A DNA stretch of 64,000 nucleotides from Candidatus Parcubacteria bacterium (GCA_026395595.1 JAPLYL010000001.1:6174-70173), one strand, 5' to 3'; positions 1,511 through 58,182 are shown, counted from the first letter of the stretch. A program made the numbers and translations. Notes: generated from the letters alone by a model not told the origin.

Positions 1511-4192
1511 TTAACCGCCGGAACCGTTACACATCCAAACATAGTTTGCCATTGAGTCGGTGGTGTCAAAGAATGTTCCTCTTACGCAAGTATTATTAAC
1601 GGAAGTATTGCATAGCCCGTTAACAAGCGAAGTTACTGCAATTGTATCTGTTTGCCCGAGATAAGTAGCCGTAACCGTAGCCGTATTCGCGCTTTTTCCA
1701 ACAATCCACCCCTTATCTGTAATCGTATTCGTAACCGTAGCGACCCCAGCGGCGCTACTTGTCCAATTTGAAGACATGGTTACATCGATTGCCCCCGGAT
1801 GAGAAGAGCATTTAGCGCCAACTCCATACCATCCAATAGCCTGTATTCCCGTCTCTCCTACAGCAACAGTGGTCGTGAATGGACAAATAACAAATGTTGC
1901 CACATTTACCGTAAAAGGCACCCACTCAGAGGTGGCAGGATCTGTTACGCTGTTATCTTTTGTTCTTACTTTAAAAGTATAGGCACCCGAAGTGGCCCAA
2001 GTATGAGCCGTTTCTTGTATGGTTGCAGGAGTAACATATCCTGATACTGGAATAATTCCATCGGATACTCCATCGTCATTCCAATCAAATTGGTAGTATA
2101 CGTTATTTCCTTCTGTATCAGGGGCAGAATGAACATAAAAACCAACTGATTGCCCTTTACTCACCGTAATAGGCGAACCATTTCCTGAAAGGTTGGTAAT
2201 AATCGGAGGCTGAGCAGTGTTAGGAAGTATGGTTACTGTTACTGAGTCACTAACGGAAACACCAATCGAATTTGAACAGGTCATAGTGTAAGTGGTACTA
2301 GTGGTTATACCTCCGGGAGTAATTCCGGTGGAATTACTCCGATTTCTTGTCGTACTATTCCATTCAGTATCACCCGAAGAAACGCATGGATATTCAGAGT
2401 TAGTAGACGACCATGTAAGCACCGTGCTGTTTCCGGAAATGACAGAAGTCGGTGTAGCTGTAAGAGTAACGGTTGGATTCGGAACAACGGTCACTGTGAC
2501 AGACGCGCTAGCGTTGACACCTGCGGAATTGTGGCAAGTAAGAGTGGACCACTTGAGAATGGTGTTCGTTCCCGTTGCGATAGAAGATGGTGTTGCCGTA
2601 AGACTCACGGTTGGCGGCGCGACGCAAGCGCTTCCATCCCATGCATATCCAGTATTGCAGGAGAATTCACATTTCGCGACGGTATTAGGATCAGCGTAAG
2701 AGTAGTTAGTGGCGACTATAAGTCCGGTGAGATTAGTGCCGGTGTAAGCAGTTCCATTTGTTGGGACCGTTCCTCCACAGACGTATGGGTCTCTTGATGC
2801 GCTGCAAGAAGCAGTGTTGCCAGTGTTTACGCCAGTACAAGTCCATGTAGCGCTAGAACCAGCAGTCGGGAATGTTGGGAGAAAACCAGTTCCTGCTGAA
2901 CAAGCGGTATCAATACCAAAAGAAGTAACGCTTGAAGCATATGCTTTGTTGTTAGCCGTTCCACAAGCACCGTTGACCGGGATAAGAGCGGTTACTGTTA
3001 CTGAGTCGCTAGCGGAAACACCAACAGAATTGGAACAAGTAAGGGTGTAGGTAGTATCTGCAGTAACGACAGAACTAACTCCGGTAGCGTTATTGAGATT
3101 GCGAGTATTTCCTGTCCAGCCGCCAGTAGAAGTACAAGGATAAACACCACCAGTAGACGACCAAGTAAGCAAAGTACTATTCCCTGTAACAACAGAAGTC
3201 GGCGCAGCCGTAAGAGTAACGGTTGGATTCGGAACAACGGTAACTGTTGCGGAAGCGCTGGCAGTAACGCCGGCTGAATTATGACACGTAAGGGTGTAGG
3301 TGGTGGTTGTAGTGATACCGGTGACAGAATTCCCTGTTGTCAGATTTGATTTTATCTTTGTTCCGCTCCACGTTCCGCCTGATGCGGTACAGCTTGTGTT
3401 ATCAGAGACATTGGTAGTATCCCAAGTAAGGAGAGTGCTTCCATTCGGAGAGATAGAAGATGGTGTTGCCGTAAGACTCACGGTTGGCGGCGCGACGCAA
3501 GCGCTTCCATCCCATGCATATCCAGTATTGCAGGAGAATTCACATTTCGCGACGGTATTAGGATCAGCGTAAGAGTAATTAGTGGCGACTATAAGTCCGG
3601 TGAGATTAGTGCCGGTGTAAGCAGTTCCATTTGTTGGGACCGTTCCTCCACAGACGTATGGGTCTCTTGAAACAGTACAAGAAGCATTCGTTCCAGTATT
3701 TATGCCATTACACGACCAAGTAGCAGTGGAACCTGCGGCGGGAAAAGTTGGTAGAGAACCAGTTCCAGAAGAACAAGCCGTATCAACACCATAAGAGGTA
3801 ATCGTAGAAGCATACGTTTTGTTGTGAGCCGTACCGCAAACGCCGTTTACCGGGATAAGAGCGGTTACGATCACCGAACCGCTAGCGGAAACACCAACAG
3901 AGTTGGAACAAGTAAGGGTGTACGTTTTGTTCGCATTAACAACCAAACTGACCCCAGTACTATTAGAGCGGCTCCGGCTGGTGCTATTCCAGTCGGTTGA
4001 CCCAGAAGAAGTGCAGGCACCGGTCGTATTGGTTGACGACCATGTAAGCACCGTGCTGTTTCCGGAAATGACAGAAGTCGGTGTAGCTGTAAGAGTAACG
4101 GTTGGATTCGGAACAACGGTCACTGTGACAGACGCGCTAGCGTTGACACCTGCGGAATTGTGGCAAGTAAGAGTGCCAAATATGCTCCGCAA
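1511..4192 (-). CDS. Large secreted repeat protein with Ig-like (Big_2/PKD-like) modules and ~290-aa internal tandem repeats. The reading frame is separated from its probable signal peptide by a frameshift at an A7 tract; possibly phase-variable or a pseudogene.
   Basis: The 893-aa ORF has a repeated module TLTCHNSAGVxASASVTVTVVPNPTVTLTATPTSV...TWSST (3 copies) and a Cys-rich module VCGGTVPTNGTAYTGTNLTGLIVATNYSYADPNTVAKCEFSCNTGYAWDGSACV (2 copies). The C-terminal region resembles Big_2. The ORF begins at TTG with no signal peptide in frame. Confidence 0.75.
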   Translation of the reverse strand: MRSIFGTLTCHNSAGVNASASVTVTVVPNPTVTLTATPTSVISGNSTVLTWSSTNTTGACTSSGSTDWNSTSRSRSNSTGVSLVVNANKTYTLTCSNSVGVSASGSVIVTALIPVNGVCGTAHNKTYASTITSYGVDTACSSGTGSLPTFPAAGSTATWSCNGINTGTNASCTVSRDPYVCGGTVPTNGTAYTGTNLTGLIVATNYSYADPNTVAKCEFSCNTGYAWDGSACVAPPTVSLTATPSSISPNGSTLLTWDTTNVSDNTSCTASGGTWSGTKIKSNLTTGNSVTGITTTTTYTLTCHNSAGVTASASATVTVVPNPTVTLTAAPTSVVTGNSTLLTWSSTGGVYPCTSTGGWTGNTRNLNNATGVSSVVTADTTYTLTCSNSVGVSASDSVTVTALIPVNGACGTANNKAYASSVTSFGIDTACSAGTGFLPTFPTAGSSATWTCTGVNTGNTASCSASRDPYVCGGTVPTNGTAYTGTNLTGLIVATNYSYADPNTVAKCEFSCNTGYAWDGSACVAPPTVSLTATPSSIATGTNTILKWSTLTCHNSAGVNASASVTVTVVPNPTVTLTATPTSVISGNSTVLTWSSTNSEYPCVSSGDTEWNSTTRNRSNSTGITPGGITTSTTYTMTCSNSIGVSVSDSVTVTILPNTAQPPIITNLSGNGSPITVSKGQSVGFYVHSAPDTEGNNVYYQFDWNDDGVSDGIIPVSGYVTPATIQETAHTWATSGAYTFKVRTKDNSVTDPATSEWVPFTVNVATFVICPFTTTVAVGETGIQAIGWYGVGAKCSSHPGAIDVTMSSNWTSSAAGVATVTNTITDKGWIVGKSANTATVTATYLGQTDTIAVTSLVNGLCNTSVNNTCVRGTFFDTTDSMANYVWMCNGSGG
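2290..4190 (-). repeat. Intragenic tandem DNA repeats (period ~870 nt) within the surface-protein gene.
   Basis: Near-identical ~120-nt blocks at 2581-2700 and 3451-3580. Identical spurious antisense ORF peptides recur (2292..2699 vs 3300..3572; 2305..2487 vs 3871..4116). Confidence 0.7.
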
Positions 4193-4257
4193 AAAAAGAT
4201 GAAAAGCAGAACAACAAAAGAAAAACTTTTTTTGAGTTGCGAATAAAATATACGCAT
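4123..4257 (-). other. 45-aa ORF encoding a classical signal peptide (MRIFYSQLKKSFSFVVLLFIFFCGAYLALLLATIPQVSTLA...). It is in the -1 frame relative to the repeat protein and is probably the displaced N-terminus of that gene.
   Basis: Hand translation from the ATG at 4257 (minus strand). One extra A in the A7 tract at 4191-4197 would fuse it in frame to the 1511..4192 ORF, giving ...LLFIFFLRSIFGTLTCHNSAG... Confidence 0.5.
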
Positions 4258-4370
4258 AGACTTTTTTATTTTTTAAAAATAGTTAACATCCTCGCCGACA
4301 TCAAAAAGTATCTGTGATTCTTTTAATTATATCACAGGAGTAAAGAAAAAAGATGTGACTTATCCACACA

Positions 4371-4406
4371 AAAAACCGTTTCAGTTTAAATCTGAAACAG
4401 TTTTTT
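4371..4406. terminator. Bidirectional Rho-independent terminator.
   Basis: Stem CCGTTTCAG/CTGAAACAG with loop TTTAAAT. There is a T6 run on the plus strand and a T-run on the minus strand (the complement of AAAAAA at 4371-4376). It sits downstream of the 4432..5187 gene. Confidence 0.6.
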
Positions 4407-4431
4407 AATTTATACAAACGAAATAAAAACT

Positions 4432-5187
4432 CTATGGAGTATGTACTCCTCCTTTAATGTTCAAGTTTCTCACCACGAGAGCTCTTGGATCCGTCGTTCC
4501 CGTCAAAAGGTTAGCTTGAATTCTTACTTTGTCGTTTTCCGCCCAAAGAGCGCTGTAGGTGGATTTTGTGTTGCGTTCATAATCCATAAAAAGAGTCGGG
4601 ATGCAACCGGAATCTGTCAAAGCGCAGTTGACTACCGACACAGTATAGGTCTTGACAGGAGAATTTGAAACCACTGTATTGCCAATAGCCACGACACTTC
4701 CGGTAAGAGTAAAACCATTAGGCTGATTGCTTGCATTCTTTACAATACCCGTCATCACCCCATCAATAATCACGGAATCCAAGGTTGCGGTTTTTTCAAT
4801 AGTCCAATCATGTACATAGTTTGTCTTAACGACACCGGAAGAGTTCATGGTCCCGGTAAGACCGATCATATCTCCTGCATTGAATTTTTGTAGCAATGAG
4901 ATTACGGTATCACCGGCAACTTGCGTATACCCGTCAATAGCGATACTCCCTTTTTTTAATACAGAAAAATCAATGGTATAATCCTTAGCCCACGAAGTAA
5001 TGGTAAAAGCAGTATCAGCATTGGAGATAGCCGTTTTAAGCGTTCCTCTCATCGTCGTTGCTCCAGTCGTCCCGATAGAGATTACCGGCACAGCTGTCGG
5101 CGGAGTATATGGTATAGCAAGGACGGAAATCGATCCGAACAACGACATGATTGCAATAATCGTAATGGCAAATAGTTTTTTATTCAT
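4432..5187 (-). CDS. Secreted hypothetical protein with an N-terminal signal peptide (MNKKLFAITIIAIMSLFGSISVLA).
   Basis: 251-aa ORF with a clear signal peptide and a Thr/Gly/Val-rich beta-like composition. No family recognised. Confidence 0.6.
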   Translation of the reverse strand: MNKKLFAITIIAIMSLFGSISVLAIPYTPPTAVPVISIGTTGATTMRGTLKTAISNADTAFTITSWAKDYTIDFSVLKKGSIAIDGYTQVAGDTVISLLQKFNAGDMIGLTGTMNSSGVVKTNYVHDWTIEKTATLDSVIIDGVMTGIVKNASNQPNGFTLTGSVVAIGNTVVSNSPVKTYTVSVVNCALTDSGCIPTLFMDYERNTKSTYSALWAENDKVRIQANLLTGTTDPRALVVRNLNIKGGVHTP

Positions 5188-5305
5188 AGAATAAAGTATT
5201 TTTTGTTTTAGTAGTAAATAATATCTGTTACTTTTTTGTTAATCATAGTATAACATCTATTTTTTTTGTAACAAACAAAAAAAACAAAAACTTATCCACA
5301 GAGTC

Positions 5306-5656
5306 TTACACTCGAGGGTAAACGATATTTACCCCCTGTGGTCCGTCATAATTTCCGAGAGTATTTTGCATAAAACCGATAATTCCCCAAATAGTAATGA
5401 GAACAAACAAAGCGACCACCCCCCATACCATGATATTTTTTCCTTTTTCGTTGGCGTTTTTATCCTCTTGATTAAGGAGAAATAAAGCTAATCCGTAAAA
5501 GAAGGCAACAAAAGCAAGAGTTCCGAAGATATTTATGAGGGATAATGTTACCGATAAAAACATATCAAGAGTCGTTCCAAGAGTAGTAAAACCAGAGACA
5601 GCAAAAGGAACAAAAGAGAGACTGCCTATAAAAAATAAAAGCATGTTTTTTTTCAT
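5306..5656 (-). CDS. VirB2/TrbC-like (T4SS pilin-like) small membrane protein, paralog 1.
   Basis: 116 aa. Signal peptide, hydrophobic helix FFYGLALFLL, a charged loop (EDKNANEKGK), then MVWGVVALFVLITIWGIIGFMQNT. This is a typical two-helix pilin architecture and is near-identical in its C-terminus to paralog 3. Confidence 0.55.
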   Translation of the reverse strand: MKKNMLLFFIGSLSFVPFAVSGFTTLGTTLDMFLSVTLSLINIFGTLAFVAFFYGLALFLLNQEDKNANEKGKNIMVWGVVALFVLITIWGIIGFMQNTLGNYDGPQGVNIVYPRV

Positions 5657-5729
5657 AGGTTAATTATAACAACGGTTCAATAAAAAAACAAACCGCCATA
5701 ATGACAGTTTGTTTTTTTCTAAATTTTTA

Positions 5730-6002
5730 CTAATTTGAGGGGATAGAGACTCCTTCTGGTAACGTAATGCCAAAAGTTCCAATAATGAGTCTCATGATCC
5801 CAAAAACACTGATCATGATAAACATTCCCAAAAGACCCCACACCATATGCCTCTGTCCTATGGCACGATCGGCAGGACTGCCGGCGATATAATATCTTGT
5901 CATTCCATAAAGGAACAAAATAGTCGCGAGAACGAACAAGAACCCAATAAAAGGATTGAGGATATAGGTGTTTATCTTCAAAAGAAGCTGATCAATGTTC
6001 AT
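5730..6002 (-). CDS. VirB2/TrbC-like small membrane protein, paralog 2.
   Basis: 90 aa with an ATG start at 6002. Motif FLYGMT...HMVWGLLGMFIMISVFGI. Confidence 0.5.
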   Translation of the reverse strand: MNIDQLLLKINTYILNPFIGFLFVLATILFLYGMTRYYIAGSPADRAIGQRHMVWGLLGMFIMISVFGIMRLIIGTFGITLPEGVSIPSN

Positions 6003-6022
6003 AAAACGGTAATTTCAGTCTC

Positions 6023-6421
6023 TTAGATAGTGATATTAATGAGTCCGCCACCGGTGGTATTGCTCGGGGTAACGTCAGGAAGAGTAAGAGTCTGTGTTCC
6101 GGTCGGTCCTCCGACATTTCCAATAGTGTTCTGCATAAAACCGATAATTCCCCAAATGGTTACCATAACAAACAAAGCGAGAACGCCCCAGATCATGATG
6201 CTTTTTCCTTCCTTGGCTTTGTCTTCATCTCCGGCTGCCAAAACGTACATGGCCAATCCCCAGAAGAAGAATACAACGACGAGAGTGGAAACAATCGGAA
6301 CAAGCATATTGACGATAGTTCCCACCAATCCGACAAGACCCTGCAAATTTCCCGCTGTATTTTGAGCGGAAGCGATAAATGGCGCAGCAAACGCACCGAG
6401 TACTATGAGTATTTTTTTCAT
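6023..6421 (-). CDS. VirB2/TrbC-like small membrane protein, paralog 3.
   Basis: ATG at 6421 (MKKILIVLGAFAAPFIASAQ signal peptide). Motif FFFWGLAMYVLAAGDEDKAKEGKSIMIWGVLALFVMVTIWGIIGFMQNT, ending in a Gly/Thr-rich tail. Confidence 0.55.
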   Translation of the reverse strand: MKKILIVLGAFAAPFIASAQNTAGNLQGLVGLVGTIVNMLVPIVSTLVVVFFFWGLAMYVLAAGDEDKAKEGKSIMIWGVLALFVMVTIWGIIGFMQNTIGNVGGPTGTQTLTLPDVTPSNTTGGGLINITI

Positions 6422-6545
6422 ATGAAAAATGTTATACCTTATAATTTTAATAAATAAAAAGAATGAATACACATTCTATTCTCTTTAATTGTATCAGATA
6501 ACGGAATGAGGGCAAATAAACGTGTGGATAAGCAAAGAAAAACGT

Positions 6546-6830
6546 TTATGAACTTGATGGCAGTTGCGGAATAAGAAGAGGAGAAAGATTAAATGTGTTC
6601 ACCAAAACTCCGACGATCCCCCACAAAGTGAACATCACAAAAATTGCAACAATGCTCCACATCATCCATGCCTTTCCTTTCGTCCTTTTATCATCATCAC
6701 TAGTGTTGAAGATAAAAACAACGATTCCATAGAAAAACGCGGCAAAGGCGGCGGCAAAGAGCAACCCCATAGCCTTGGCGATAAGCCCGATAAAAAGATT
6801 CATAATGTCTTGAAAATTGGTCGGTGCCAT
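6546..6830 (-). CDS. VirB2/TrbC-like small membrane protein, paralog 4.
   Basis: 94 aa. Motif FFYGIVVFIFNTSDDDKRTKGKAWMMWSIVAIFVMFTLWGIVGVLVNT. Confidence 0.5.
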   Translation of the reverse strand: MAPTNFQDIMNLFIGLIAKAMGLLFAAAFAAFFYGIVVFIFNTSDDDKRTKGKAWMMWSIVAIFVMFTLWGIVGVLVNTFNLSPLLIPQLPSSS

Positions 6831-6860
6831 ATAGTTTAGTTTAGATAATAAAAGTAGTAT

Positions 6861-7292
6861 TTAACCGGTGGGCCCTCCTATCTGCGCGATCGTCCCGACA
6901 ATGGCATTCGCCAAAAGCCACGAACCGAAAAGAACCGCCGTTCCGATAACCGCCCACAGAAAAGCATTTTTTGCAGAGGTGAGTTTCGTTTCATTTCCTT
7001 GCGCGGTGAGAAAAAGAAATCCGGAATAAAGAATAAAGAACGTGGCAACAGGAACGCCTATTTGCAAAAGAATACGAAGAACACTCTGAATAAATTCGGG
7101 TAAAGAGTGAATATTCGGAGTAATCGGTTCAGCCGCCAAGTTTATTTTTGGAGGAGAATCGGCAAAAACTGATACGCCAGTAGAAAGTAACAAAACAACA
7201 AAAGCACCAACTCCAAATGTTCCGGACGGGGGTACAACCCCCGTCCGGCGACGAGCGATGGCTCTCTTTTCATTTGTCATTTCGTTTTTCAT
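6861..7292 (-). CDS. VirB2/TrbC-like small membrane protein, paralog 5 (longer N-terminal region).
   Basis: 143 aa. Motif FILYSGFLFLTAQGNETKLTSAKNAFLWAVIGTAVLFGSWLLANAIVGTIAQIGGPTG, with a C-terminal GG as in VirB2. Confidence 0.5.
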   Translation of the reverse strand: MKNEMTNEKRAIARRRTGVVPPSGTFGVGAFVVLLLSTGVSVFADSPPKINLAAEPITPNIHSLPEFIQSVLRILLQIGVPVATFFILYSGFLFLTAQGNETKLTSAKNAFLWAVIGTAVLFGSWLLANAIVGTIAQIGGPTG

Positions 7293-7455
7293 TGGAAATT
7301 TGAAATTTTATTACCCCCCCATCGACCCAATCGTATTTTGAAAAACTTTTAAGGTGTTTATATATTGATTTAATTATATCATATCAATAAAAATTTCGAC
7401 GAAGTTTATCCACAGAGTTGCACGTACTTGTTGAATGTAGCAAACGAATACTTGA

Positions 7456-7488
7456 CTTAACATAAGTTATATGTTAACTTATGTTAAG
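7456..7488. promoter_or_regulatory. Inverted repeat (11-bp arms CTTAACATAAG / CTTATGTTAAG, 11-nt spacer) overlapping a TTGACT -35-like hexamer. Candidate operator/promoter for the small plus-strand ORF.
   Basis: The arms are perfectly complementary and lie about 120 nt upstream of the ATG at 7606. Confidence 0.35.
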
Positions 7489-7681
7489 TTTGTTTTTGGG
7501 GTTATCTCAAAAAAAAGAATGGTTTCTTTGAAGTTTTTTTAATAAAACGATAAATTTCATTAGAAATTTTAACTCTACAAAGTGAAAATTCACAAGAGGC
7601 ATACAATGATTAATTCAGAATACTACCACAACAAAGGCGAACAAGATGGGGTAGAAGGGCCTTGTAGCTACGATCCCCCCA

Positions 7682-7849
7682 ATGAAAAACTTTGATTTTG
7701 ACTTTGACTACAAAGAAGATTACGATGCGGGGTGGTCTTATGCCAGAGGTCAGTATGATTATAATAATGATTGCGGATACAAACCCCAAGGCAATGAAGA
7801 ATCATACGACGAGGGCTGGGAAAACGCAAAAGAACAAGATGACGACTAG
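7682..7849 (+). CDS. Small acidic Tyr/Asp/Gly-rich protein (MKNFDFDFDYKEDYDAGWSYARGQYDYNNDCGYKPQGNEESYDEGWENAKEQDDD). The upstream ORF 7606..7695 (MINSEYYHNKGEQDGVEGPCSYDPPNEKL) is probably its frameshifted N-terminus.
   Basis: Hand-translated, below the ORF-track size cut-off. It is the only plus-strand gene inside the minus-strand pilin array and is followed by a clean terminator. The two ORFs overlap at a C6 tract (7675-7680), and deleting one C fuses them. Confidence 0.45.
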   Translation: MKNFDFDFDYKEDYDAGWSYARGQYDYNNDCGYKPQGNEESYDEGWENAKEQDDD

Positions 7850-7862
7850 ATAGTTAAGCTGT

Positions 7863-7892
7863 GACCACAATTGAAAAATTGTGGTCTTTTTA
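7863..7892 (+). terminator. Rho-independent terminator (stem GACCACAATT/AATTGTGGTC, loop GAAAA, T5).
   Basis: A perfect 10-bp stem followed by TTTTT on the plus strand. Confidence 0.65.
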
Positions 7893-7908
7893 TATTTCCC
7901 TATTGCAT

Positions 7909-8244
7909 TTACCCACCAAGCTGACCGATAGTGTTTTTAACAATCGTTGCTACAATGATGGCGGACAATATGACTATGGCTCCGATAAAGCTTCCGACGA
8001 GCCACCCTCTCGCTATTTTTAACTTCCCAGGGTCGCCGCTTGCGGATACAAACAGATATCCGGTCCAAATAAAGGCGAGCGTAATAACGGGGATGCTGAT
8101 TCGTATCACGATATTCAACATCGCGGTTACGAATTCAAACAGCGTCCCCACTGCAGGCGTCGGAGAGGTAAGTTTGGTTACTCCTTGTGCAAAAGATACG
8201 AGGGGTAACAAATAAAGCGCGGTGATGTAAAAAAACTTTCTCAT
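7909..8244 (-). CDS. VirB2/TrbC-like small membrane protein, paralog 6.
   Basis: 111 aa. Signal peptide, then FIWTGYLFVSASGDPGKLKIARGWLVGSFIGAIVILSAIIVATIVKNTIGQLGG. Confidence 0.5.
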   Translation of the reverse strand: MRKFFYITALYLLPLVSFAQGVTKLTSPTPAVGTLFEFVTAMLNIVIRISIPVITLAFIWTGYLFVSASGDPGKLKIARGWLVGSFIGAIVILSAIIVATIVKNTIGQLGG

Positions 8245-8251
8245 ACATAGT

Positions 8252-9556
8252 TTATTGCGTTAAAACGCTAAAATCGGCTTGCAGTTTCCCTACCGCATCA
8301 ACGACCGTTGATTTTCCTGAGGAAATGGATTCAACGGTTTGTTGAAAGAGTCCATCAGTGAGTTCCGGACGAAGATCAAACCACGTTTTGCTTATCAGAG
8401 CGGAATCATAAAAGACTTTCATAAAAGGATTAGCGGTTCCTTTTGCTAAAACAGAGCGATTAGGGGATGGGGTTGCCAAGGTAGAAGAAATATACTCGCT
8501 GTATTTTGAAGAAGAAAAGATTTGCGCCGTATACAGAGCCAACGATTTGTTCGGCGAGGTCTTCATGGTTGCCAATCCGCTCACTCTTCCAAAAGCAGAC
8601 CTATTGGCGGAATCGCGCACTTGAGGAACCAAAGCAACATCAAAATTCAAATTCGGGTTTTTTGCCTGAATGGAAGAAATTTCGCTCGCGTAACCGAAAT
8701 ATATCGCCAGCTTCCCCGCTATAAATAAATTCTTTGATTCCGGTAATGAACGATTCCATGAATACGCCATATTGAGAGGGTCTGCAAAATCAGTATAAAA
8801 ACGAAAAACTTCGCTTACTGGCGGAATCCTTTGTTCGTTTGAACCCATGAATACGGGAAGGAAGACGTTTCCCGTTCTGCGTACAACCATCGGGTTGCCG
8901 GTCTGGAGCATAAGCATAGCGAGAATATCTTTTGCATGCGTTACGTTGCGAAATTCTCCAAAGGCCACCGCACTCTGCGAAATCTCTTTTGACTCGCTCT
9001 TTTTGGTTAAGACGGGACTCAACGTAAGAAACTGATCCCAGTATTTCGGAGGTTCAACAATACCGCCACTCGTAAATATGTCTCTATTCCAATACATAAC
9101 CATCGGATCAACAGAAAAAGGCAAAGCAAGAATTCCCTCGCCCGGTTGAATAAATATCTCCCCTGCCTGTATAAACGTATCGCGGAAGGTTCTTTCGGTA
9201 TACATCGCCGGAGTAAAAAGTTCTATTTTGTCGGAAAAACGAACAATCAGATCATTCGGAAGAATAACCATATCCGGCCCCTTCCCTGCCGCCAACGCCT
9301 CAATGATGTTGCTGGCAAAAGTGGCTGAATTTTTGGGGACATAGGTAATGTGAATGTCCGAATAATCCGGTGAAAAATACTGTTGCAGAAACTTATCCAT
9401 GTTCGCTTTCGGCACGGTTCCCCACATCGTCAAATTTCCGGTAATTTTTGCCGTGCTTGATGCTCCTGGTTTCGGAATGATTCCCGCGAAGGAAAACAAA
9501 CCGAGAACAGCCAGGGCTCCAAATACAATAGTGATGATGAGCTGGATATTTTTCAT
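8252..9556 (-). CDS. Extracellular solute-binding protein (ABC-transporter substrate-binding, family 1-like).
   Basis: 434 aa. N-terminal TM/signal anchor MKNIQLIITIVFGALAVLGLFSFAG, with size and composition typical of sugar-type SBPs. It lies 7 nt downstream of pilin paralog 6. Confidence 0.5.
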   Translation of the reverse strand: MKNIQLIITIVFGALAVLGLFSFAGIIPKPGASSTAKITGNLTMWGTVPKANMDKFLQQYFSPDYSDIHITYVPKNSATFASNIIEALAAGKGPDMVILPNDLIVRFSDKIELFTPAMYTERTFRDTFIQAGEIFIQPGEGILALPFSVDPMVMYWNRDIFTSGGIVEPPKYWDQFLTLSPVLTKKSESKEISQSAVAFGEFRNVTHAKDILAMLMLQTGNPMVVRRTGNVFLPVFMGSNEQRIPPVSEVFRFYTDFADPLNMAYSWNRSLPESKNLFIAGKLAIYFGYASEISSIQAKNPNLNFDVALVPQVRDSANRSAFGRVSGLATMKTSPNKSLALYTAQIFSSSKYSEYISSTLATPSPNRSVLAKGTANPFMKVFYDSALISKTWFDLRPELTDGLFQQTVESISSGKSTVVDAVGKLQADFSVLTQ

Positions 9557-24322: not shown

Positions 24323-24592
24323 ATGGAAACTGTACAATTTGAAGAACAACCCCGTATAGCAACCCACCAAAAGAAGGGAGCATTTTTACCGTCCCTCATT
24401 ATTAAATTTTCCCATGGAAAAGTTGAAAACGAAAATCAAGCAAATCTGGTTCTGTTTACCGGTGCTGTTATTATTTTCGTTCTCGCTTTCTTCGTCGCTT
24501 TTACAGGTGGAACAACCAAAAGTTCCTTGCCAGAGCCTCTTATTAAAACGGATATAGAAAGAATGATAAATCAACCAATTCCAAAAAAATGA
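24323..24592 (+). CDS. Small membrane protein (89 aa), co-transcribed with the type IV pilin (ATGA overlap).
   Basis: One TM helix (LVLFTGAVIIFVLAFFVAFTGG). Its stop overlaps the pilin start. Confidence 0.45.
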   Translation: METVQFEEQPRIATHQKKGAFLPSLIIKFSHGKVENENQANLVLFTGAVIIFVLAFFVAFTGGTTKSSLPEPLIKTDIERMINQPIPKK

Positions 24593-25113
24593 TAAAAAAA
24601 AGAAATAAGGGGTTCACTCTTATAGAACTTTTGGTTGTAATTGCAATCATTGCTCTTTTGTCTACAACAGTAATGACATCACTTTCCGCCGCACGCCAAA
24701 AATCCAGAAACGCAAAAAGAATGGCAGATATGAAGGCTATTCAAACAGCATTGGAAATGTACTACAACGACAACAATGGTTACCCAAATCCGGGAGGAGG
24801 ATGGAGATCCGAATGCAATTCATATGGAGGGTTTGCGGCAAATAATGTTATACCAGGACTAACCCCAACATATCTCGGAACTTTTCCATCAGATCCTTCA
24901 ATGAATAGAACCGGAAGCGTTAGCTGTTATCTTTATAATTCAAATGGAACAGATTACGCATTACTTGATCACAATGGTCCAGACATTGTTTACACATCAA
25001 ATTCCACACTCATTGATCCAACGCGTGACGGCGGTTCTAATCCCTGTATCATTGATGGAACAAACATATGGTCATGGAAAATATCTTCTTCTCCTGTCAG
25101 TCGTTGTTGGTAA
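24589..25113 (+). CDS. Type IV pilin / pseudopilin (prepilin-type N-terminal cleavage/methylation domain).
   Basis: N-terminus MIKKRNKGFTLIELLVVIAIIALL is the canonical class III signal peptide. Confidence 0.9.
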   Translation: MIKKRNKGFTLIELLVVIAIIALLSTTVMTSLSAARQKSRNAKRMADMKAIQTALEMYYNDNNGYPNPGGGWRSECNSYGGFAANNVIPGLTPTYLGTFPSDPSMNRTGSVSCYLYNSNGTDYALLDHNGPDIVYTSNSTLIDPTRDGGSNPCIIDGTNIWSWKISSSPVSRCW

Positions 25114-26224: not shown

Positions 26225-27652
26225 ATGTCCAAACGTACACCGTTTGATAAATACTTAGCTCAATTGGAAAATGCAGCTACCGTTTTGAATTTGGATCCCC
26301 GTATCCTTGAGCGCCTGAAAATTCCGGCATTGCTCATACGAGGAAAAGTTAAAATAGAAATGGATGACAGCACTTTCAAGGAATTCAACGTATTCCGTTG
26401 CCAGCATAATCACGCTCGCGGCCCAACCCAAGGCGGTACCCGTTTTGACCCCGCAGTCTGCGAATCAGAAGTAAAATTCTTGGCCGCAATGATGACTATG
26501 AAAAATACGATAGACCAGATTTTGAACGGCGGTGGCAAGGGCGGTATCTGCGTAGACAAAATTCCGCTTTCTCTCGGTGAAGGCGAACGTCTCTGTCGCG
26601 GTTATACCAGAACTATCCACCCATGGATCGGTCCTCGTCGCGATGGCCCTGCGCCTGATGTAAACACCGGCGGACAAGAAATGGCATGGTTCCTTGATGA
26701 GCAAGAAAGACTCGCGGGAGAACACTGCTTCGGCGCTTTCACGGGTAAACCTCTTGTTTTAGGAGGCTCACTCGGACGCGGCGACGCAACTGCGCTTGGC
26801 GCGGTATACGCATCAGAAGCAATGATCAAACAACTTGGCCTGAAAGGCGGTTTAAGTATTTCTATCCAAGGATTTGGTAATGCCGGCGATTTTTATGCCA
26901 AGTTGATGTCTGAAGAAAAACACGGCGGTCACAAAATCGTTTCTGTTTCAGACAGAAGCGGTGTGATCTACAAAGCCGATGGTTTTGATTATACCGACCT
27001 GCATAATTTCTGCTACAAAAACGGTAAAAAAGTCCGTAAAGTCACTGAGTATCCTTATAAAGACGTTCTGACTTCAGAAGAAGCGGAATTGCTTTCTTTG
27101 ACGGCTGATATTTTTGCACCGGCAGCGTTTGAAGATAAGATTGATGCGGCTATGGCTCGCGCGATCAAATCAAAATTCATCGTGGAACTTGCTAATGGCC
27201 CTTGCACAGAAGAAGCGGATGCCATCCTTGCTGAACGCGGCGTGGAAATCATTCCTGACATCTATGCATCAGGAGGCGGTGTTCGAGTATCGGCAGCTGA
27301 AAAAATCCAAGGTTTGGAAAATCAAAAATGGACAGCGGAACGCGTTGCTGAATGGTTAAAAACACGTATGTTCCAGGCATTTGAAGACCTGGTCAAAGTT
27401 CGGGAAGAGTATCATTTGAAATCATTCCGAGAAGCGGCAATGGTCTTCGCGGTTCGTGAAGTTGCAGAAGCCATGACCTGGCGCGGCGGTTTTGATTATC
27501 CTTACGGCGAAGTGATAGACGTAGAACCTGTCGTGGTCTGTAAAGACCTGGCAAAAAGAGATAACTTGCGTTATGTCTCTGCCCTCAACGACAAGGTCAA
27601 AAAATTCGTTTACGACTTTGACACAAAAAAAACAATAGAGATTTCTGAATAA
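26225..27652 (+). CDS. Glu/Leu/Phe/Val dehydrogenase family (glutamate dehydrogenase-like), paralog 1.
   Basis: Catalytic lysine/glycine-rich motif NGGGKGGICVDK and the NAD(P)-binding GFGNAG motif. Confidence 0.85.
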   Translation: MSKRTPFDKYLAQLENAATVLNLDPRILERLKIPALLIRGKVKIEMDDSTFKEFNVFRCQHNHARGPTQGGTRFDPAVCESEVKFLAAMMTMKNTIDQILNGGGKGGICVDKIPLSLGEGERLCRGYTRTIHPWIGPRRDGPAPDVNTGGQEMAWFLDEQERLAGEHCFGAFTGKPLVLGGSLGRGDATALGAVYASEAMIKQLGLKGGLSISIQGFGNAGDFYAKLMSEEKHGGHKIVSVSDRSGVIYKADGFDYTDLHNFCYKNGKKVRKVTEYPYKDVLTSEEAELLSLTADIFAPAAFEDKIDAAMARAIKSKFIVELANGPCTEEADAILAERGVEIIPDIYASGGGVRVSAAEKIQGLENQKWTAERVAEWLKTRMFQAFEDLVKVREEYHLKSFREAAMVFAVREVAEAMTWRGGFDYPYGEVIDVEPVVVCKDLAKRDNLRYVSALNDKVKKFVYDFDTKKTIEISE

Positions 27653-30134: not shown

Positions 30135-31370
30135 CTATCCCCTTCCTCTCGCAATCATTGCTTCCGATATTCTGGAAAGAGCAATAATATATGCCGAATT
30201 CCTTACGGTTGTTTTTTTCTCATTACTGACTTTCCACACTTCATCAAAAGAAGTCCTCATGATTTTTTCCAATTTTTGAAGCACCTCTTTTTCTTCCCAA
30301 TAATACCCGTACGCGTTTTGCACCTGTTCAAAATAGGACACCGCGACACCCCCCGCATTCGTCAGAATATCAGGAAGAACCATAACATTATTTTTTTCAA
30401 ACACGATATCCGCTTCAGGAGTTACCGGCCCATTGGCGAGTTCCGCCACCAGCTTTGTTTTGAGAGTCTGCGCGTCTTTTTCCGTAACAGAGTTTTCAAG
30501 CGCGGCAGGAATAAAAATGTCAACTTCCTCTGCGAACTGTTCTGTGGAAGTAATATCTTTCGCTTTCGGATACCCAGAGAGCATTCCTTTTTCGTCTTTG
30601 TATTTGGCAACATCGTCAACGTCCAAACCCTCTTTATTTTCTATAACACCTTTAGAGTCGGAAACGGAAATAATCTTGTATCCTGCCTTCTGCATAATCA
30701 TTGCGACGTTTCTTCCCGCGTTTCCAAAGCCCTGAATGGCAACCGTCGCGCCTTTTTCAATGCCAAGTTTTTTTGCCGCAGAATCAATAACGTAAAAACC
30801 TCCTTGTGCCGTGGAATAAGAACGGGCTTTTGATCCGCCAAGAGAAAGCGGTTTTCCGGTAATGACTCCCGCCTCATGGTGTCCTCTTATCGTTTCATAT
30901 TCGTCCAGCATCCAGCTCATAATCCTTCCGTCGGTGTTGACATCCGGAGCGGGCACATCAACACGATCGCCGATAATACCGGAAACGGCGCGGATATAAC
31001 CGCGGGAAAGTCTTTCCAGTTCTCCGACAGAAAGTTCTTTCGGATTTACGATGATACCGCCCTTTCCCCCTCCAAGAGGAATATCCACCACCGCGCATTT
31101 GAATGCCATCCATGCAGAAAGCGCTTTTACTTCGCCGATATTAACGTTTTGATGAAACCGAATTCCTCCTTTAAACGGCCCGCGCGCATCGTTATATTGA
31201 GACCGATACCCGGTGAAAACTTTCACTTCACCATTGTCCATTTTAACAGGAATGGATACCTCTAAAAAACGCTTCACCGACAACATTTGCCGATAGATAT
31301 TTTCAGGAATATCTAAAAACTGTCTCGTACCTTCTATCTGTCGTAAAAACTTATCAAATTCGTTTTGCAT
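30135..31370 (-). CDS. Glu/Leu/Phe/Val dehydrogenase family, paralog 2.
   Basis: GGGKGGIIVNPKELS and GFGNAG motifs. Start at ATG 31370 (MQNEFDKFLRQIEG). Confidence 0.85.
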   Translation of the reverse strand: MQNEFDKFLRQIEGTRQFLDIPENIYRQMLSVKRFLEVSIPVKMDNGEVKVFTGYRSQYNDARGPFKGGIRFHQNVNIGEVKALSAWMAFKCAVVDIPLGGGKGGIIVNPKELSVGELERLSRGYIRAVSGIIGDRVDVPAPDVNTDGRIMSWMLDEYETIRGHHEAGVITGKPLSLGGSKARSYSTAQGGFYVIDSAAKKLGIEKGATVAIQGFGNAGRNVAMIMQKAGYKIISVSDSKGVIENKEGLDVDDVAKYKDEKGMLSGYPKAKDITSTEQFAEEVDIFIPAALENSVTEKDAQTLKTKLVAELANGPVTPEADIVFEKNNVMVLPDILTNAGGVAVSYFEQVQNAYGYYWEEKEVLQKLEKIMRTSFDEVWKVSNEKKTTVRNSAYIIALSRISEAMIARGRG

Positions 31371-31480
31371 ACTTGTAAAAATAAAATAGTAAAAAGTCTT
31401 CTTATTATAGCAAAAATAAGAAAAGTATGAAAACAATGAGTTTCCATACTTTTTACAACTCGACAAAAAAAGAAAAGATG

Positions 31481-33505
31481 CTAGATGTTTTCTTTTTCAG
31501 TATCTGCCTTTATGTTTCTATCAACAATAAGATTGCAGGCTTTGCAGATACCGAGTTCTTCCATCTTTTCCAGATAAGCGATTACGGCGAGTACGTATTC
31601 GGAATGACTCCAAGTAAGCGGAGCGGCAGAAATTTGGGCTTTGGTATACGGATTCAGCTGTTCAGAAAGCACCCCCGTCGGAAGAGCCACCCCAACAACC
31701 CAATCAAACCATTGCTTCACACGCTCAAAATCTTTTTCGTTCCGAGCTGTCGCAATATAATACTGTACCAGCCAAAGAGTCGTGACGAACCATGGATTTC
31801 CGGGAACATCATGACCGAGACGATAATAATTATCTCCCTCATACCGAGCGATTCCTCCCGAATACCGGGCGCAAAAAAGCCGTTCTTCAGTAATACCGAA
31901 AGCTTTCCTGAGACGCGGATCATCAGGAGGAAGTACTCCGAAACGGAACATTCCATAGACGCTGGAAATATCCAGCGTATCATCATTGATGTTTTTTCCC
32001 GAAACGCGATTAAAGAGTTTCCTGAAAGTTCCCGTTTCTTCATTATAAAGGTATTTCAGTATCCCCTTCTTTATTTCTTCAGCAATATCGCGATATTTTT
32101 TCTCATGTTCTTTTTTACCTAAAAGACCGGAAAAATTAGCAGCCGAGATAAGTGCTCCGTAGACAGAAGCACAGGTAAAAGTGGAAACGCCGAGCTTTTC
32201 TTCCCAGAGATCGTAACTTCGTTTCGGGAGACCCGTCTCTTTATCCCGATAGAGGGACATAAAATTCGCCGCTTTCTCGATGAAAGAATTATAAATTTCT
32301 TCAACAAACTCAAGATCCTTAGTAAGTTTGTAGTGATCCCAAAGAGCATAGAGAACAAGAGCTGTTTCGTCTTCTTGTATCGGAAGCTGCGCTTCCCCTT
32401 CTTTGGTCACCCATGGATGCCAAGAACTTCCCAGCGAACCGTCAGGCCGATATTTGTGCATGAAAAATCCATCATTCGTAAGCGCGTCATTGCAAAAGGA
32501 AAAAAACTTTCTCGCGATGTAGGAATCGCCGGAACGGTCAAGCGCCATAATAGTAAAAGCCCCGTCTCTCGGCCACATATAGCTGTATGTATCGCGGCCA
32601 TACTGAAGCATATCGGAATCTCCTGAAGCGATAACGGCGCCACTGGAATCAACATGGGAACGGATAATAAAAAGAGATCTCTTGAACAGGTTTATCATAT
32701 CTTGCGTAAGTCCATAAAAACTGAAACCCTCGCGATTCACCCAAGCCGTCCAATAGTTCGTAGTGGAACGAATAAGATGTCCAGGAGATTTTTCAAGAAC
32801 ATAATTATTCAAATCAGACACTTCCGGAATGTTCTTGCCGACGGCTACCCAATAATAAACGTTTTGTTCTTCTTGAGAATCCAGCTCCAAATGAAAAGAA
32901 AGAACGGAATCAGTCAGTCCGTGTTCTATCGGATTTTTGGAAAGAACGCCATCCTCCGCGTCGCGATAACTTCCATCTTTGCCTTCCATACGATATATGC
33001 CGGTCGTATAATCATCTATTCCTCCTTTTTCGGTAAAACCGTTCGCGAGAAAAACTCTTCTTCCTTCATAATGAATTACGGAGTGACTGAGAGGGTCATA
33101 ATATCCGGTATCTTGGCGTCCGGATTGGTAGATATTCCACTCCTGACAGAAAAAAATCTTTATGGCCGTTCTTCTCGGAACTTCATTCCGCACCATCACC
33201 TGACGGAGAAATATATTTTTTTCATTGTATACGGCATCGGTAAAAACGAGGGTAACGCCAAGAACTTTATTTTTTGCAACAATATGGCTTACATGCGTTT
33301 CTTTAACGCAACGCAGATCTATATTCCAATTCGGATCAGAAAGCCAACTCATCCCTCCATCCACAAAAACCCCAATGCGATGAAGAGCATCTTTCCCGAT
33401 ATGATTTTCCATTCCAACATGGGGGTAGTACAAGTCGGTCACTTGACCGTACTTGTCAAAACAAACCAGCATGTTTCCATTCCCAAGAGTAAGAGATTTT
33501 GGCAT
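31481..33505 (-). CDS. Glycoside hydrolase family 15 (glucoamylase/glucodextranase-like) protein.
   Basis: 674 aa. N-terminus MPKSLTLGNGNMLVCFDKYGQVTDLYYPHVG and an (alpha/alpha)6-barrel-type composition are typical of bacterial GH15. Confidence 0.65.
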   Translation of the reverse strand: MPKSLTLGNGNMLVCFDKYGQVTDLYYPHVGMENHIGKDALHRIGVFVDGGMSWLSDPNWNIDLRCVKETHVSHIVAKNKVLGVTLVFTDAVYNEKNIFLRQVMVRNEVPRRTAIKIFFCQEWNIYQSGRQDTGYYDPLSHSVIHYEGRRVFLANGFTEKGGIDDYTTGIYRMEGKDGSYRDAEDGVLSKNPIEHGLTDSVLSFHLELDSQEEQNVYYWVAVGKNIPEVSDLNNYVLEKSPGHLIRSTTNYWTAWVNREGFSFYGLTQDMINLFKRSLFIIRSHVDSSGAVIASGDSDMLQYGRDTYSYMWPRDGAFTIMALDRSGDSYIARKFFSFCNDALTNDGFFMHKYRPDGSLGSSWHPWVTKEGEAQLPIQEDETALVLYALWDHYKLTKDLEFVEEIYNSFIEKAANFMSLYRDKETGLPKRSYDLWEEKLGVSTFTCASVYGALISAANFSGLLGKKEHEKKYRDIAEEIKKGILKYLYNEETGTFRKLFNRVSGKNINDDTLDISSVYGMFRFGVLPPDDPRLRKAFGITEERLFCARYSGGIARYEGDNYYRLGHDVPGNPWFVTTLWLVQYYIATARNEKDFERVKQWFDWVVGVALPTGVLSEQLNPYTKAQISAAPLTWSHSEYVLAVIAYLEKMEELGICKACNLIVDRNIKADTEKENI

Positions 33506-33598
33506 GTCGTAAATTACAAATTAAAAGATATAAATATAGTATACACCGTTATGTAAAAAAAGATTTCAAAAAGTGTGTATAAACGAGCATTAAAAAAT

Positions 33599-51492: not shown

Positions 51493-51852
51493 AATAGGGC
51501 TCAGTGAATAATAAAAGAATTATAGAGACAAAAAAATTCCCAACCCTGTCTAAAAAGGCCTCGGAATTCTTTATTAATCTTTATAATTCAAATGCAAGCA
51601 ATTGTGAAGCTTGGTTAGCTAAAAAACGAGCGTTTCTTCAGCCATGAACTCATCCTAAAAACGTAACTACAAGTATACTCCAGCAGGATTTTTTTGTCAA
51701 ATGCAAAAAAGTCAATAAACGCTTAAAAACGGCGTTTTTTTCTTCGCTCTTCCCTTTTAAGGCTAATAACCTAGACTTTTTATTCGGAACCAAAACAAAA
51801 CACCGATTTTAACATAAATCAACCTGTGGATAAATACCATTTTCCAAACAAA

Positions 51853-51892: not shown

Positions 51893-52204
51893 TTATCGTT
51901 TTTCAAGAACTTCAACCCGCCGAACAACCTTATCAAACTCGTTCCGATGTACCGTTTCGTCCAGACTCAAAAGAGTTCCCATCTGCTTCTTCTCAAGCGA
52001 AGAAAGACGACGATTGGTTTCCCCTTGTTCAATAGTGAGATTAGTAAGGCGAGAATCTATGCCATCAAGACGAGAGTCTATGCCGTCAAGACGGGAATTA
52101 ACGGAAGAAAATTTTTGTTCAATTTTTTCAAACCCGTCTACTACAAGGCGCGCGACCATTTCAATACCGGTTTCTTTTTCTTTCATTTTTATTTCTTTTT
52201 TCAT
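51893..52204 (-). CDS. Small coiled-coil protein with 7-aa tandem repeats (DSRLDGI, ~2.5 copies). Paralog of 61213..61569.
   Basis: Shares the N-terminal GFEKIE..SSV block and the C-terminal E(Q/E)..ETNRRL.S..KKQ.GT.LSLDETVHRNEF...VRRVE.LEK block with its paralog. The repeat number differs. Confidence 0.6.
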   Translation of the reverse strand: MKKEIKMKEKETGIEMVARLVVDGFEKIEQKFSSVNSRLDGIDSRLDGIDSRLTNLTIEQGETNRRLSSLEKKQMGTLLSLDETVHRNEFDKVVRRVEVLEKR

Positions 52205-56796: not shown

Positions 56797-56830
56797 GCAA
56801 AAAAAGAGCCCACCCTGTGGATAGCTCTTT
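56797..56830 (-). terminator. Terminator for rpsP (hairpin AGAGC...GCTCT + T7 on the minus strand). The loop carries the DnaA-box variant TGTGGATAG.
   Basis: Hairpin preceded on the plus strand by AAAAAAA (56801-56807). Confidence 0.5.
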
Positions 56831-57274: not shown

Positions 57275-57859
57275 ATGAGAGATTTTCACAAAGACAACAA
57301 AGGAGGATTCGGCGGAGGAAGAAGCTTCGGCGGAGACAGAGGCGGATTCAGCGGAGGACGCGGAGGAAGAGATTCCGGTGGCCGTGGCGGATTCGGAGGA
57401 GGAAGAGACCGGGAAGACCGCGAAATGCATTCAGCAACCTGTGCGAAATGTGGAAAGTCTTGCCAAGTTCCCTTTCGCCCAACTGGCGACAAGCCGGTAT
57501 ATTGCAGCGATTGTTTCAAAAACAAGGACGGAGGAATGAGCCCTCGCAGAGATGAAGGAAGAAGCTTTGAAAGAAGCGAACAACCTTCATTCAACAGCCG
57601 ACCGTCTTTTGAAAACAAAGGTGCCGACAACAGAGAGGAATTCAGAGCTATCAACGACAAGCTTGAAAAGATTATGAAATTGCTCTCCAAAGATATGCCT
57701 GCTCCGACTCCTGCTCCTAAAGCAGACAAGCCGGAAGTAAAAGCAATGAAAGTTGCTGCAGTCGTAGAAGAGGCTATCGGAAAAAAGATTACCAAAAAGA
57801 AAGAAACGGTTAAAGAAATTGCCAAGCCTAAAAAAACAGCAAAAGCAAAGAAGAAATAA
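57275..57859 (+). CDS. Gly/Arg-rich (RGG-box-like) zinc-ribbon protein with a Lys-rich C-terminal tail; putative nucleic-acid-binding protein.
   Basis: N-terminal GGFGGGRSFGGDRGGFSGGRGGRDSGGRGGFGGGRDR. Zinc ribbon CAKCGKSCQVPFRPTGDKPVYCSDC (CxxC...CxxC). C-terminal KKITKKKETVKEIAKPKKTAKAKKK. Confidence 0.6.
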   Translation: MRDFHKDNKGGFGGGRSFGGDRGGFSGGRGGRDSGGRGGFGGGRDREDREMHSATCAKCGKSCQVPFRPTGDKPVYCSDCFKNKDGGMSPRRDEGRSFERSEQPSFNSRPSFENKGADNREEFRAINDKLEKIMKLLSKDMPAPTPAPKADKPEVKAMKVAAVVEEAIGKKITKKKETVKEIAKPKKTAKAKKK

Positions 57860-57888
57860 ACGAATAGAATAATAACAAAATAAAAAAA

Positions 57889-57925
57889 TAGAAAGATTAT
57901 TGCCACCGGCGTAATCTTTTTATTT
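57889..57925 (+). terminator. Rho-independent terminator (AGATTATTGCC acc GGCGTAATCT + T-rich).
   Basis: Hairpin followed by TTTTTATTTTTT. Confidence 0.55.
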
Positions 57926-58182
57926 TTTACTAGGCAACAAAAAAAAGCTTGCCTTAAGACAAACTATTTTTTTGTCTTTGTTTCGCGTATCAAAACGCGT
58001 TATGCGCCTGATATATCTGGAAACAAATTTGACCTCTTTTCCTAATTAGAAAAAAGAGAATGTAATGAAAGTACTCTGTTCTGTATTCAGTATACCTCAC
58101 GCAAAAGAGTGAAATCAAGAATGGTTTGTGGATAAAACGATTTTTCGTATACATAAAAGACTTTTTGTGTTACTCTATTTAC

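Follow-up and report, generated by a model that had tools for sequence, protein, structure and literature searches.

Exact DnaA-box words at a near-fixed distance from predicted promoters for pilins and surface proteins in a Paceibacteria genome

Genes and DnaA-box words at the pilin locus

We analyzed a 64,000-nucleotide stretch of a Candidatus Parcubacteria bacterium genome (GCA_026395595.1, JAPLYL010000001.1:6174-70173; hereafter the window, with positions counted from its first letter), in which a locus encoding pilins and other surface proteins carries repeated exact copies of the nine-letter word TTATCCACA (read from the opposite strand, TGTGGATAA). We refer to these copies as boxes, and consider here whether they may be operators of the promoters that they adjoin. 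Based on the relatives of its UvrC, the source is a member of the Paceibacteria ("Candidatus Nomurabacteria/Paceibacterota"), within the candidate phyla radiation (CPR).

The locus is dominated by six paralogous genes of the family PF18895 ("type IV secretion system pilin"), all on the minus strand at 5306-8244. In the direction of transcription, pilin 6 (7909-8244) lies 7 nt downstream of a solute-binding protein gene (8252-9556) and has no box of its own; pilin 5 (6861-7292, with an additional weak match to TrbC) and pilin 4 (6546-6830) follow. Next are pilin 3 (6023-6421), the major pilin of the type IV secretion system (T4SS) type, then, after 20 nt, pilin 2 (5730-6002; its PF18895 match is just under the cutoff), and pilin 1 (5306-5656). 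Besides the solute-binding protein gene, uvrC is also found upstream of the pilin genes. Downstream, on the same strand, are two genes for secreted proteins: a 251-aa protein (4432-5187) that begins with a signal-like segment and matches no Pfam family, and a large repetitive surface protein with a weak PKD match (1511-4257).

Four of the six exact boxes in the window lie in this locus, one per transcription unit, and each is found upstream of an extended -10 element (TGnTAnAAT) with a weak or absent -35, in either orientation. Box 1 (4360-4368, TGTGGATAA on the minus strand) is located directly past the terminator hairpin of the 251-aa protein gene and serves the large surface protein; it is followed after 28 nt by TATAAT with an upstream TG, within the extended -10 TGTGATATAAT (4326-4336, minus strand). 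Box 2 (5292-5300, also TGTGGATAA on the minus strand) begins 5 nt past the stop codon of pilin 1, and 39 nt separate it from TGTTATACT (5247-5255), the extended -10 of the 251-aa protein gene (TGTGGATAA-N39-TATACT overall, with TTGTTA-N16-TATACT and the TG as core promoter). Box 3 (6523-6531) reads TTATCCACA on the minus strand and belongs to the promoter of the major pilin and pilin 2, which has the order TTATCCACA-N7-TTGCCC-N16-TACAAT plus TG; TTGCCC is -35-like, the core promoter occupies 6488-6515, and the box is 29 nt upstream of TGATACAAT. Box 4 (7406-7414, TGTGGATAA on the minus strand) lies 27 nt from the extended -10 TGATATAAT (7373-7381) of the unit of pilins 5 and 4 (TGTGGATAA-N27-TATAAT, with TG). 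The fifth promoter of the locus, TGTTATAAT (5663-5671), serves pilin 1 and is without a box.

The gap between box and -10 is thus 28 nt at 4360, 39 nt at 5292, 29 nt at 6523 and 27 nt at 7406, compared with 32 nt at the copy at 58127 outside the locus. The first-pass annotation had placed plausible -10 elements 50-70 nt from two of these boxes, and this has to be revised, as the best -10 elements lie at 27-39 nt. If transcription is assumed to start 7 nt past the -10, the box spans approximately -50 to -42 in three of the units, with its center near -46, and Box 2 sits one helical turn farther upstream.

The number of exact copies is itself far above expectation. The same annotation reported six copies for about 0.5 expected, and our search matched exactly six: reading the plus strand, TTATCCACA at 4360, 5292 and 7406, and TGTGGATAA at 6523, 51825 and 58127. 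Dinucleotide-preserving shuffles gave a mean of 0.47 copies and a maximum of 3, with none of 100 shuffles attaining six (Poisson P = 1e-5 for six or more given 0.47). One-mismatch copies, taken as a class, are not enriched in the window (18 observed vs 12.4 expected). All six exact copies are intergenic, the copy at 58127 overlapping solely with a spurious 5' extension of the rnr open reading frame (ORF). As intergenic DNA makes up 8.7% of the window when defined by a greedy ORF call (our gene calls are simple ORF calls), this would occur by chance with a probability of 0.087^6, or 4e-7.

One might still attribute the copies to chance, compositional bias or a functionless relic of tandem pilin duplication. 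The pilins are indeed paralogs (repeat family D1), and the copies at 5292 and 7406 share the 13-mer TTATCCACAGAGT, an identity already recorded in the first-pass annotation and recovered in our repeat search (family D16). However, two of the four boxes in the locus precede genes that do not encode pilins, the flanks of the boxes are unrelated, and no shuffle reached the observed count. Further, the boxes are conserved across species where their flanks diverge, and their enrichment and spacing recur in unrelated loci, as described below. We therefore regard this explanation as very improbable. A mobile repeat, such as a repetitive extragenic palindrome or a miniature inverted-repeat element, was likewise rejected, since nothing is shared past the 9-mer except in the one 13-mer pair and the flanks are unrelated.

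The presence of consensus DnaA boxes could also indicate that the region is, or adjoins, the chromosomal origin oriC, to which we assign a negligible probability. The boxes are 0.9-1.2 kb apart, with expressed genes between them, and form no tight cluster; no AT-rich unwinding element accompanies them, and Pfam and phmmer searches of the window revealed no DnaA-like ORF and neither dnaA nor dnaN, in agreement with the dispersed arrangement first described. Moreover, the cumulative GC skew falls almost monotonically, without a V-shaped turning point.

Conservation of the box and its spacing in relatives

The closest locus in public genomes, L002, encodes a UvrC 89% identical to that of the window, followed by L003 at 75%. 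L002 contains five exact boxes in 21 kb, all of them in its orthologous pilin locus, within 3.1 kb. Four are at orthologous positions, with gaps of 27, 29, 40 and 28 nt, and the fifth is on the other side of the terminator. The counterparts of Boxes 1, 2 and 4 are found at 17045, 16124 (gap 40) and 13962 (gap 27), and the -10 element of the large surface-protein gene reads TGTGGTATAAT in L002.

Conservation in the region is highest for the major pilin (96% identity in L002 and 81% in L003, above UvrC), and its promoter offers the widest comparison. TTATCCACA is invariant at this promoter in the window, L002, L003, L083 and L084, and a box with one mismatch takes its place in L085 (TTATCCCCA; pilin 44% identical) and in L090 (ATATCCACA; TrmD 78% identical). 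The gap between box and -10 is 28-30 nt in every lineage compared. A TTTGC motif lies 6-8 nt past the box in the window, L002, L003, L083 and L084, and the columns T.TG.TA..AT are invariant in the promoter alignment (A6). Between the box, TTTGC and the -10 the sequence diverges, and the upstream stop codon is found at varying distances. A metagenome scan with the pilin alignment gave at least four loci among the matches listed. The box therefore stands at these predicted promoters and is conserved there, as indicated both by the footprint among relatives and by the positional peak obtained de novo (see below).

Several other features of the locus were observed in the course of this comparison. 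At the start of the large surface-protein gene, a signal-peptide-like ORF (MRIFYSQLKKSFSFVVLLFIFFCGA..., 4192-4257, minus strand) begins with an ATG at 4257 and runs for 45 codons to a stop; just past a run of seven T, its frame differs from that of the repeat-rich body of 893 aa. The L002 ortholog (17159 onward) is intact, with more than 1348 aa. The disruption in the window could represent a pseudogene, phase variation or an assembly artefact from collapsed repeats. Between Box 4 and its -10, and overlapping the box by 2 nt, is the palindrome AAACTTCG-N-CGAAGTTT (7391-7407; L002 13971-13987), which is perfect in L002, has one mismatch in the window, and may be a second operator of the pilin 5/4 promoter. 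A distance of 6 nt separates the end of the pilin 1 promoter TGTTATAAT from the ATG at 5656 (window 5657-5671), and the equivalent -10 in L003 is approximately 45 nt from the start codon; given the predicted promoter, the pilin 1 mRNA of the window would be leaderless or nearly so. A perfect 15-nt inverted repeat with a 5-nt loop (7455-7489, ACTTAACATAAGTTA / TAACTTATGTTAAGT) is found where pilin 5 and a small plus-strand ORF diverge. This plus-strand ORF (7682-7849) encodes a very acidic, Tyr/Asp-rich protein of 55 aa and has its own terminator (7863-7886).

Boxed promoters across the class and elsewhere in the window

The analysis covered the 64 kb of the window and approximately 1.4 Mb of relatives' loci. 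Across 79 further uvrC loci of Paceibacteria, totaling 1.22 Mb, the exact box is uncommon (0.17 per 10 kb). Their 134 kb of intergenic DNA nevertheless holds 13 exact boxes vs 2.0 expected, a 6.4-fold enrichment (order-3 Markov, P = 2e-7), and 10 of the 13 have a -10-like hexamer at a gap of 26-34 nt. At random intergenic positions, a gap of 27-33 nt would be found in 12.8% of cases; manual collapsing of orthologs left 24 independent sites, of which 11 fit (P = 8e-5). Gaps are most frequent at 29-33 nt in the TTATCCACA orientation and at 27-29 nt in the reverse one.

Motif discovery in upstream regions, proposed in the first-pass annotation as a check, gave a concordant result without using the box as a query. 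In non-coding DNA of the Paceibacteria loci, 7-mers were counted in the 65 nt preceding each of 555 extended -10 sites, and the box core supplied the strongest: TATCCAC, ATCCACA and TCCACAC, each enriched 11-12 fold with a peak at -38/-37, all outrank the -35 word TTGACA, with the reservation that orthologous promoters are not independent and inflate the counts.

At least eight promoter families have a box in two or more lineages. In the families named below, the box or a form of it with one mismatch takes the equivalent position. In the promoter of the lexA operon (six loci), the order of elements is box, TTGCAG, GAAC-N4-GTTC palindrome, TATAAT. The box is exact in L025 (16168-16215), L048 (15128-15172) and L075 (7386-7430), and reads TTATCCCCA in L038 (14432) and L041 (13416) and TTATCAACA in L060 (8029). 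The palindrome between the -35 and -10 is of what we take to be the Gram-positive LexA (Cheo-box) type, and a conserved 69-aa ORF is found before lexA in these relatives. The promoter of the transketolase N-terminal subunit gene (tkt) has TGTGGATAC at a gap of 29 nt in six loci. Other boxed promoters precede ddl (L048), a histidine kinase gene (L013), a small membrane protein gene (L038, L041), and genes for a large surface protein of 1881 aa in L088 and for one with TSP_1/DUF11 domains in L049.

Given the local density of consensus boxes of the high-affinity type (four in 3 kb of the window, five in 3.1 kb of L002), we also considered sites that titrate DnaA or otherwise control replication, of the datA type or the type of the Bacillus clusters, and that have no direct role in transcription. 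Titration by dispersed boxes in Escherichia coli (PMC12371093) and box clusters outside oriC in Bacillus subtilis (PMC3245932) offer precedents. Such clusters hold many boxes, consensus as well as degenerate, in approximately 0.5-1 kb, however, and 4360-7414 holds only four exact ones, single boxes about 1 kb apart, one in each intergenic region, with no site of one mismatch or fewer between them. The distance to the -10 is conserved, in contrast to that from the upstream stop codon, which varies, and the same position is taken at unrelated single promoters across the class. Titration sites therefore seem improbable to us.

Of the two exact copies outside the pilin locus, Box 6 (58127-58135, TTATCCACA on the minus strand) shows the common geometry. 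It had initially been read as a -35-associated site of rnr; instead it fits a minus-strand promoter, TTATCCACA-N8-TTGATT-N18-TATACT, with the -10 at 58089-58094 and a gap of 32 nt, which is directed away from rnr and into 57907-58080. This promoter is kept in L088 and L089, where the box reads TTATCCACC (one mismatch). Past the promoter is a conserved 5' segment, AGTACTTTCATTA..., followed by a terminator-like hairpin and T-run approximately 130-150 nt downstream. The candidate RNA spans 57907-58094 on the minus strand of the window, 6564-6770 in L088 and 7786-7980 in L089, and no ORF is conserved across these three loci. An Rfam search at the gathering threshold and ARAGORN found no match in the window, and an Rfam E-value scan of 57800-58200 gave chance-level matches only. 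The arrangement suggests a candidate small RNA or long leader, and this copy probably serves a divergent small-RNA-like transcript, not rnr.

Box 5 (51825-51833) adjoins the terminator of the gene at 51893-52204, approximately 330 nt upstream of rpoB. It has no conserved counterpart in the relatives, and no exact box was found upstream of rpoB in L091. The proposal made at the outset, that the word is a regulon motif and not part of oriC, thus stands as far as promoter spacing, conservation at orthologs and the class-wide motif are concerned, and does not account for this copy, which is without the typical geometry.

Two one-mismatch variants in the window also lie near promoters. The variant noted earlier at 56816-56824 (CTATCCACA, minus strand) is present upstream of the khpA promoter TTGACT-N16-TATAAT, at a gap of 42 nt to the -10; it is the counterpart of TAATCCACA, found at a gap of 30-31 nt in the khpA promoters of L086 and L091. 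The other, TTATACACA at 33574-33582 (minus strand), has its mismatch at position 5, which is the N of TTATNCACA; TATACT (33538-33543) follows after 30 nt, and a GH15 gene (31481-33505) is found downstream.

The rest of the window contains housekeeping genes (rpoB, rpoC, rpoD, dnaG, uvrB, smc, trmD, rpsP, several tRNA synthetase genes and others). Its RpoD is normal, and canonical sigma-70 promoters also occur, for example TTGACA-N17-TATACT approximately 200 nt upstream of rpoB. The genome has pilins of the type IV pilus type as well as of the T4SS type, since 24589-25113 encodes a type IV pilin-like protein bearing a prepilin N-methylation motif (PF07963). There are two glutamate/leucine dehydrogenase paralogs (26225-27652 and 30135-31466). 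In the relatives, a reverse-transcriptase (RVT_1) gene adjoins trmD in L086 (8910-9917), and a gene of the 23S_rRNA_IVP/bAvd-like type takes its position in L088; the two may be remnants of diversity-generating retroelements. In 12 uvrC loci the word CAATGACTGG ends right before an extended -10, and further enriched intergenic 9-mers (GACTGGTAC, AGAGTCGAT and ACACCCCCT) point to a conserved non-coding element, other than a tRNA, near uvrC.

Candidate binder, mechanism and comparison with known systems

We propose that TTATCCACA is probably a promoter-proximal operator of a global regulator of the Paceibacteria, with DnaA as its inferred binder, a reading that we hold with moderate confidence. 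The word matches the consensus DnaA box at all nine positions (PMC8203912), and the window has six such matches to this 9-bp asymmetric box (TTATCCACA, or more generally TTWTNCACA). It has no dyad partner, and the same word is kept across lineages that are only about 50% identical in UvrC; judged from sequence, such invariance suits an essential and highly conserved monomeric DNA-binding domain. DnaA is also a known activator and repressor of transcription (PMC8203912). We consider binding by DnaA somewhat better than an even prospect.

Several observations weigh against this proposal. The promoters and start sites are predicted from consensus only; the 5292 box is 10 nt farther out than the other boxes, and the 51825 box fits no promoter geometry. 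We know of no documented rule by which DnaA acts at a near-equal distance in both orientations. The putative targets are mostly surface and membrane proteins, whose connection to replication is not obvious. Binding by DnaA might favor, among single mismatches, variants at positions 3 and 5 (the W and N of the TTWTNCACA set); these are observed 19 times vs 11 expected, a weak test at P = 0.018 with orthologs retained, and other single mismatches 29 times vs 35.7 expected. The conserved variants GTATCCACA (tkt), TTATCCCCA and TTATCAACA (lexA) and TAATCCACA (khpA) fall outside the classical degeneracy of DnaA. Finally, a DnaA-signature regular expression and phmmer, the latter with a manually entered B. 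subtilis DnaA query, detected no dnaA in the window or in the approximately 1.4 Mb of relatives' loci, and no oriC was retrieved. Because no dnaA or oriC of the lineage was found in the loci examined, we put DnaA forward as the binder by inference.

Some of the same observations would favor a genuine operator bound by another regulator of the Paceibacteria or CPR, for example a monomeric helix-turn-helix activator whose site coincides with the DnaA box or competes for it. The strict geometry (about -46, either orientation, one site per promoter) is more like that of MarA/SoxS/Rob than of typical DnaA promoters; the variants GTATCCACA (tkt, six loci), TTATCCCCA and TAATCCACA point to ATCCACA as the core in preference to TTWTNCACA; and surface and membrane proteins predominate among the targets. 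An exact 9/9 match to the universal DnaA consensus would, however, be unlikely for an unrelated protein, Pfam revealed no candidate regulator in or adjoining the locus, and invariance over deep divergence suits a highly conserved essential protein. We consider another regulator a serious but clearly less probable explanation. Two specific alternatives were rejected. A CRP-like dyad, TGTGG-N5-TCACA at 4354-4368, is not kept in L002 and is absent at the other boxes. Sigma-54 promoters (GG-N10-GC; TGGCAC-N5-TTGC at -24/-12, with a fixed orientation) do not fit either, as the forward CCACA-N7-TTGC has the wrong spacing and no GG, and reverse boxes are without TTGC.

Under the operator reading, a protein bound at about -46 would adjoin the -35 region, directly upstream of sigma region 4 and the C-terminal domain of the RNA polymerase alpha subunit, and would help RNA polymerase onto promoters that have no good -35. 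Given an operator, its effect is probably activation, through recruitment or stabilization of RNA polymerase, with repression as the alternative; we favor activation because a site at about -46 together with an extended -10 and a poor -35 is the arrangement of an activator-dependent promoter. The 10-nt offset at 5292, and at 16124 in L002, keeps the site on the same helical face. Expression of pili and surface proteins would then depend on the amount of the regulator or on its nucleotide state and, with DnaA in that role, on replication status as well.

In a broader view, which we offer tentatively and hold at somewhat less than even probability, the Paceibacteria, and perhaps the CPR generally, which have few transcription factors, may have recruited DnaA as a global class-II-like activator of fixed geometry, or else a CPR-specific regulator may have evolved to read the DnaA box and compete with DnaA for it. 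With DnaA in this role, the signal found most often upstream of promoters would be a single consensus box next to the -35, and pili, surface adhesins, lexA, transketolase and khpA would all be tied to the state of replication initiation.

The CPR (Patescibacteria) are uncultured bacteria with tiny genomes and few regulators, and to our knowledge almost nothing is known about how their transcription is controlled. For this group, a cis-element is now defined, together with a predicted promoter architecture in which the box is followed after 7-8 nt by a weak -35 and then by an extended -10. The motif can be used for promoter annotation and for the design of expression tools. The candidate regulon takes in the T4SS-type pilins, presumed mediators of host contact. 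If DnaA binds the boxes, replication status would bear directly on the expression of surface appendages in an episymbiont.

Compared with known box-bearing regions, the boxes described here share with oriC, datA and DnaA-box clusters (PMC4285127, PMC3245932, PMC12371093) the presence of above-chance consensus boxes in intergenic DNA. Unlike those, they form no tight cluster, have no unwinding element or adjacent dnaA/dnaN, are approximately 1 kb apart, and each keeps a conserved distance to a -10.

In geometry, the closest parallels are activators with position- and orientation-dependent sites beside the -35, such as MarA/SoxS/Rob (class I and II) and CRP at class II promoters (-41.5). As with MarA/SoxS/Rob, a single asymmetric site borders a weak -35 or lies slightly upstream of it, and both orientations occur, here at 29-33 nt from the -10 in the forward and 27-29 nt in the reverse orientation. 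The box is unrelated in sequence to the marbox or CRP site, and no AraC- or CRP-family protein was identified.

In sequence, the closest parallels are DnaA-regulated promoters, which carry the same 9-bp TTATCCACA in their promoter regions. DnaA acts as a transcription factor at dnaA, nrdAB and uvrB in E. coli, dnaA, sda, ywlC and others in B. subtilis, and gcrA, ftsZ and mipZ in Caulobacter, and at nrdAB high-affinity boxes upstream of the promoter stabilize RNA polymerase (PMC8203912). The SOS gene uvrB of E. coli is regulated jointly by DnaA and LexA (PMC6015884), which resembles the combination of box and LexA-type palindrome at the lexA promoters of the relatives. In contrast to these systems, there is one box per promoter at a near-fixed position of approximately -50 to -42, in either orientation; no other motif upstream of promoters in the class is as enriched as the box, with DnaA as its presumed binder; and the targets, in an uncultured CPR bacterium, are T4SS-type pilins, large surface proteins, transketolase and khpA. 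Our literature search found no paper linking the DnaA box to CPR/Patescibacteria promoters. Control of transcription through DnaA boxes is already known, and what we provisionally regard as new is the lineage, the fixed geometry, the rank of the box as top motif, and the pilin and surface-protein targets.

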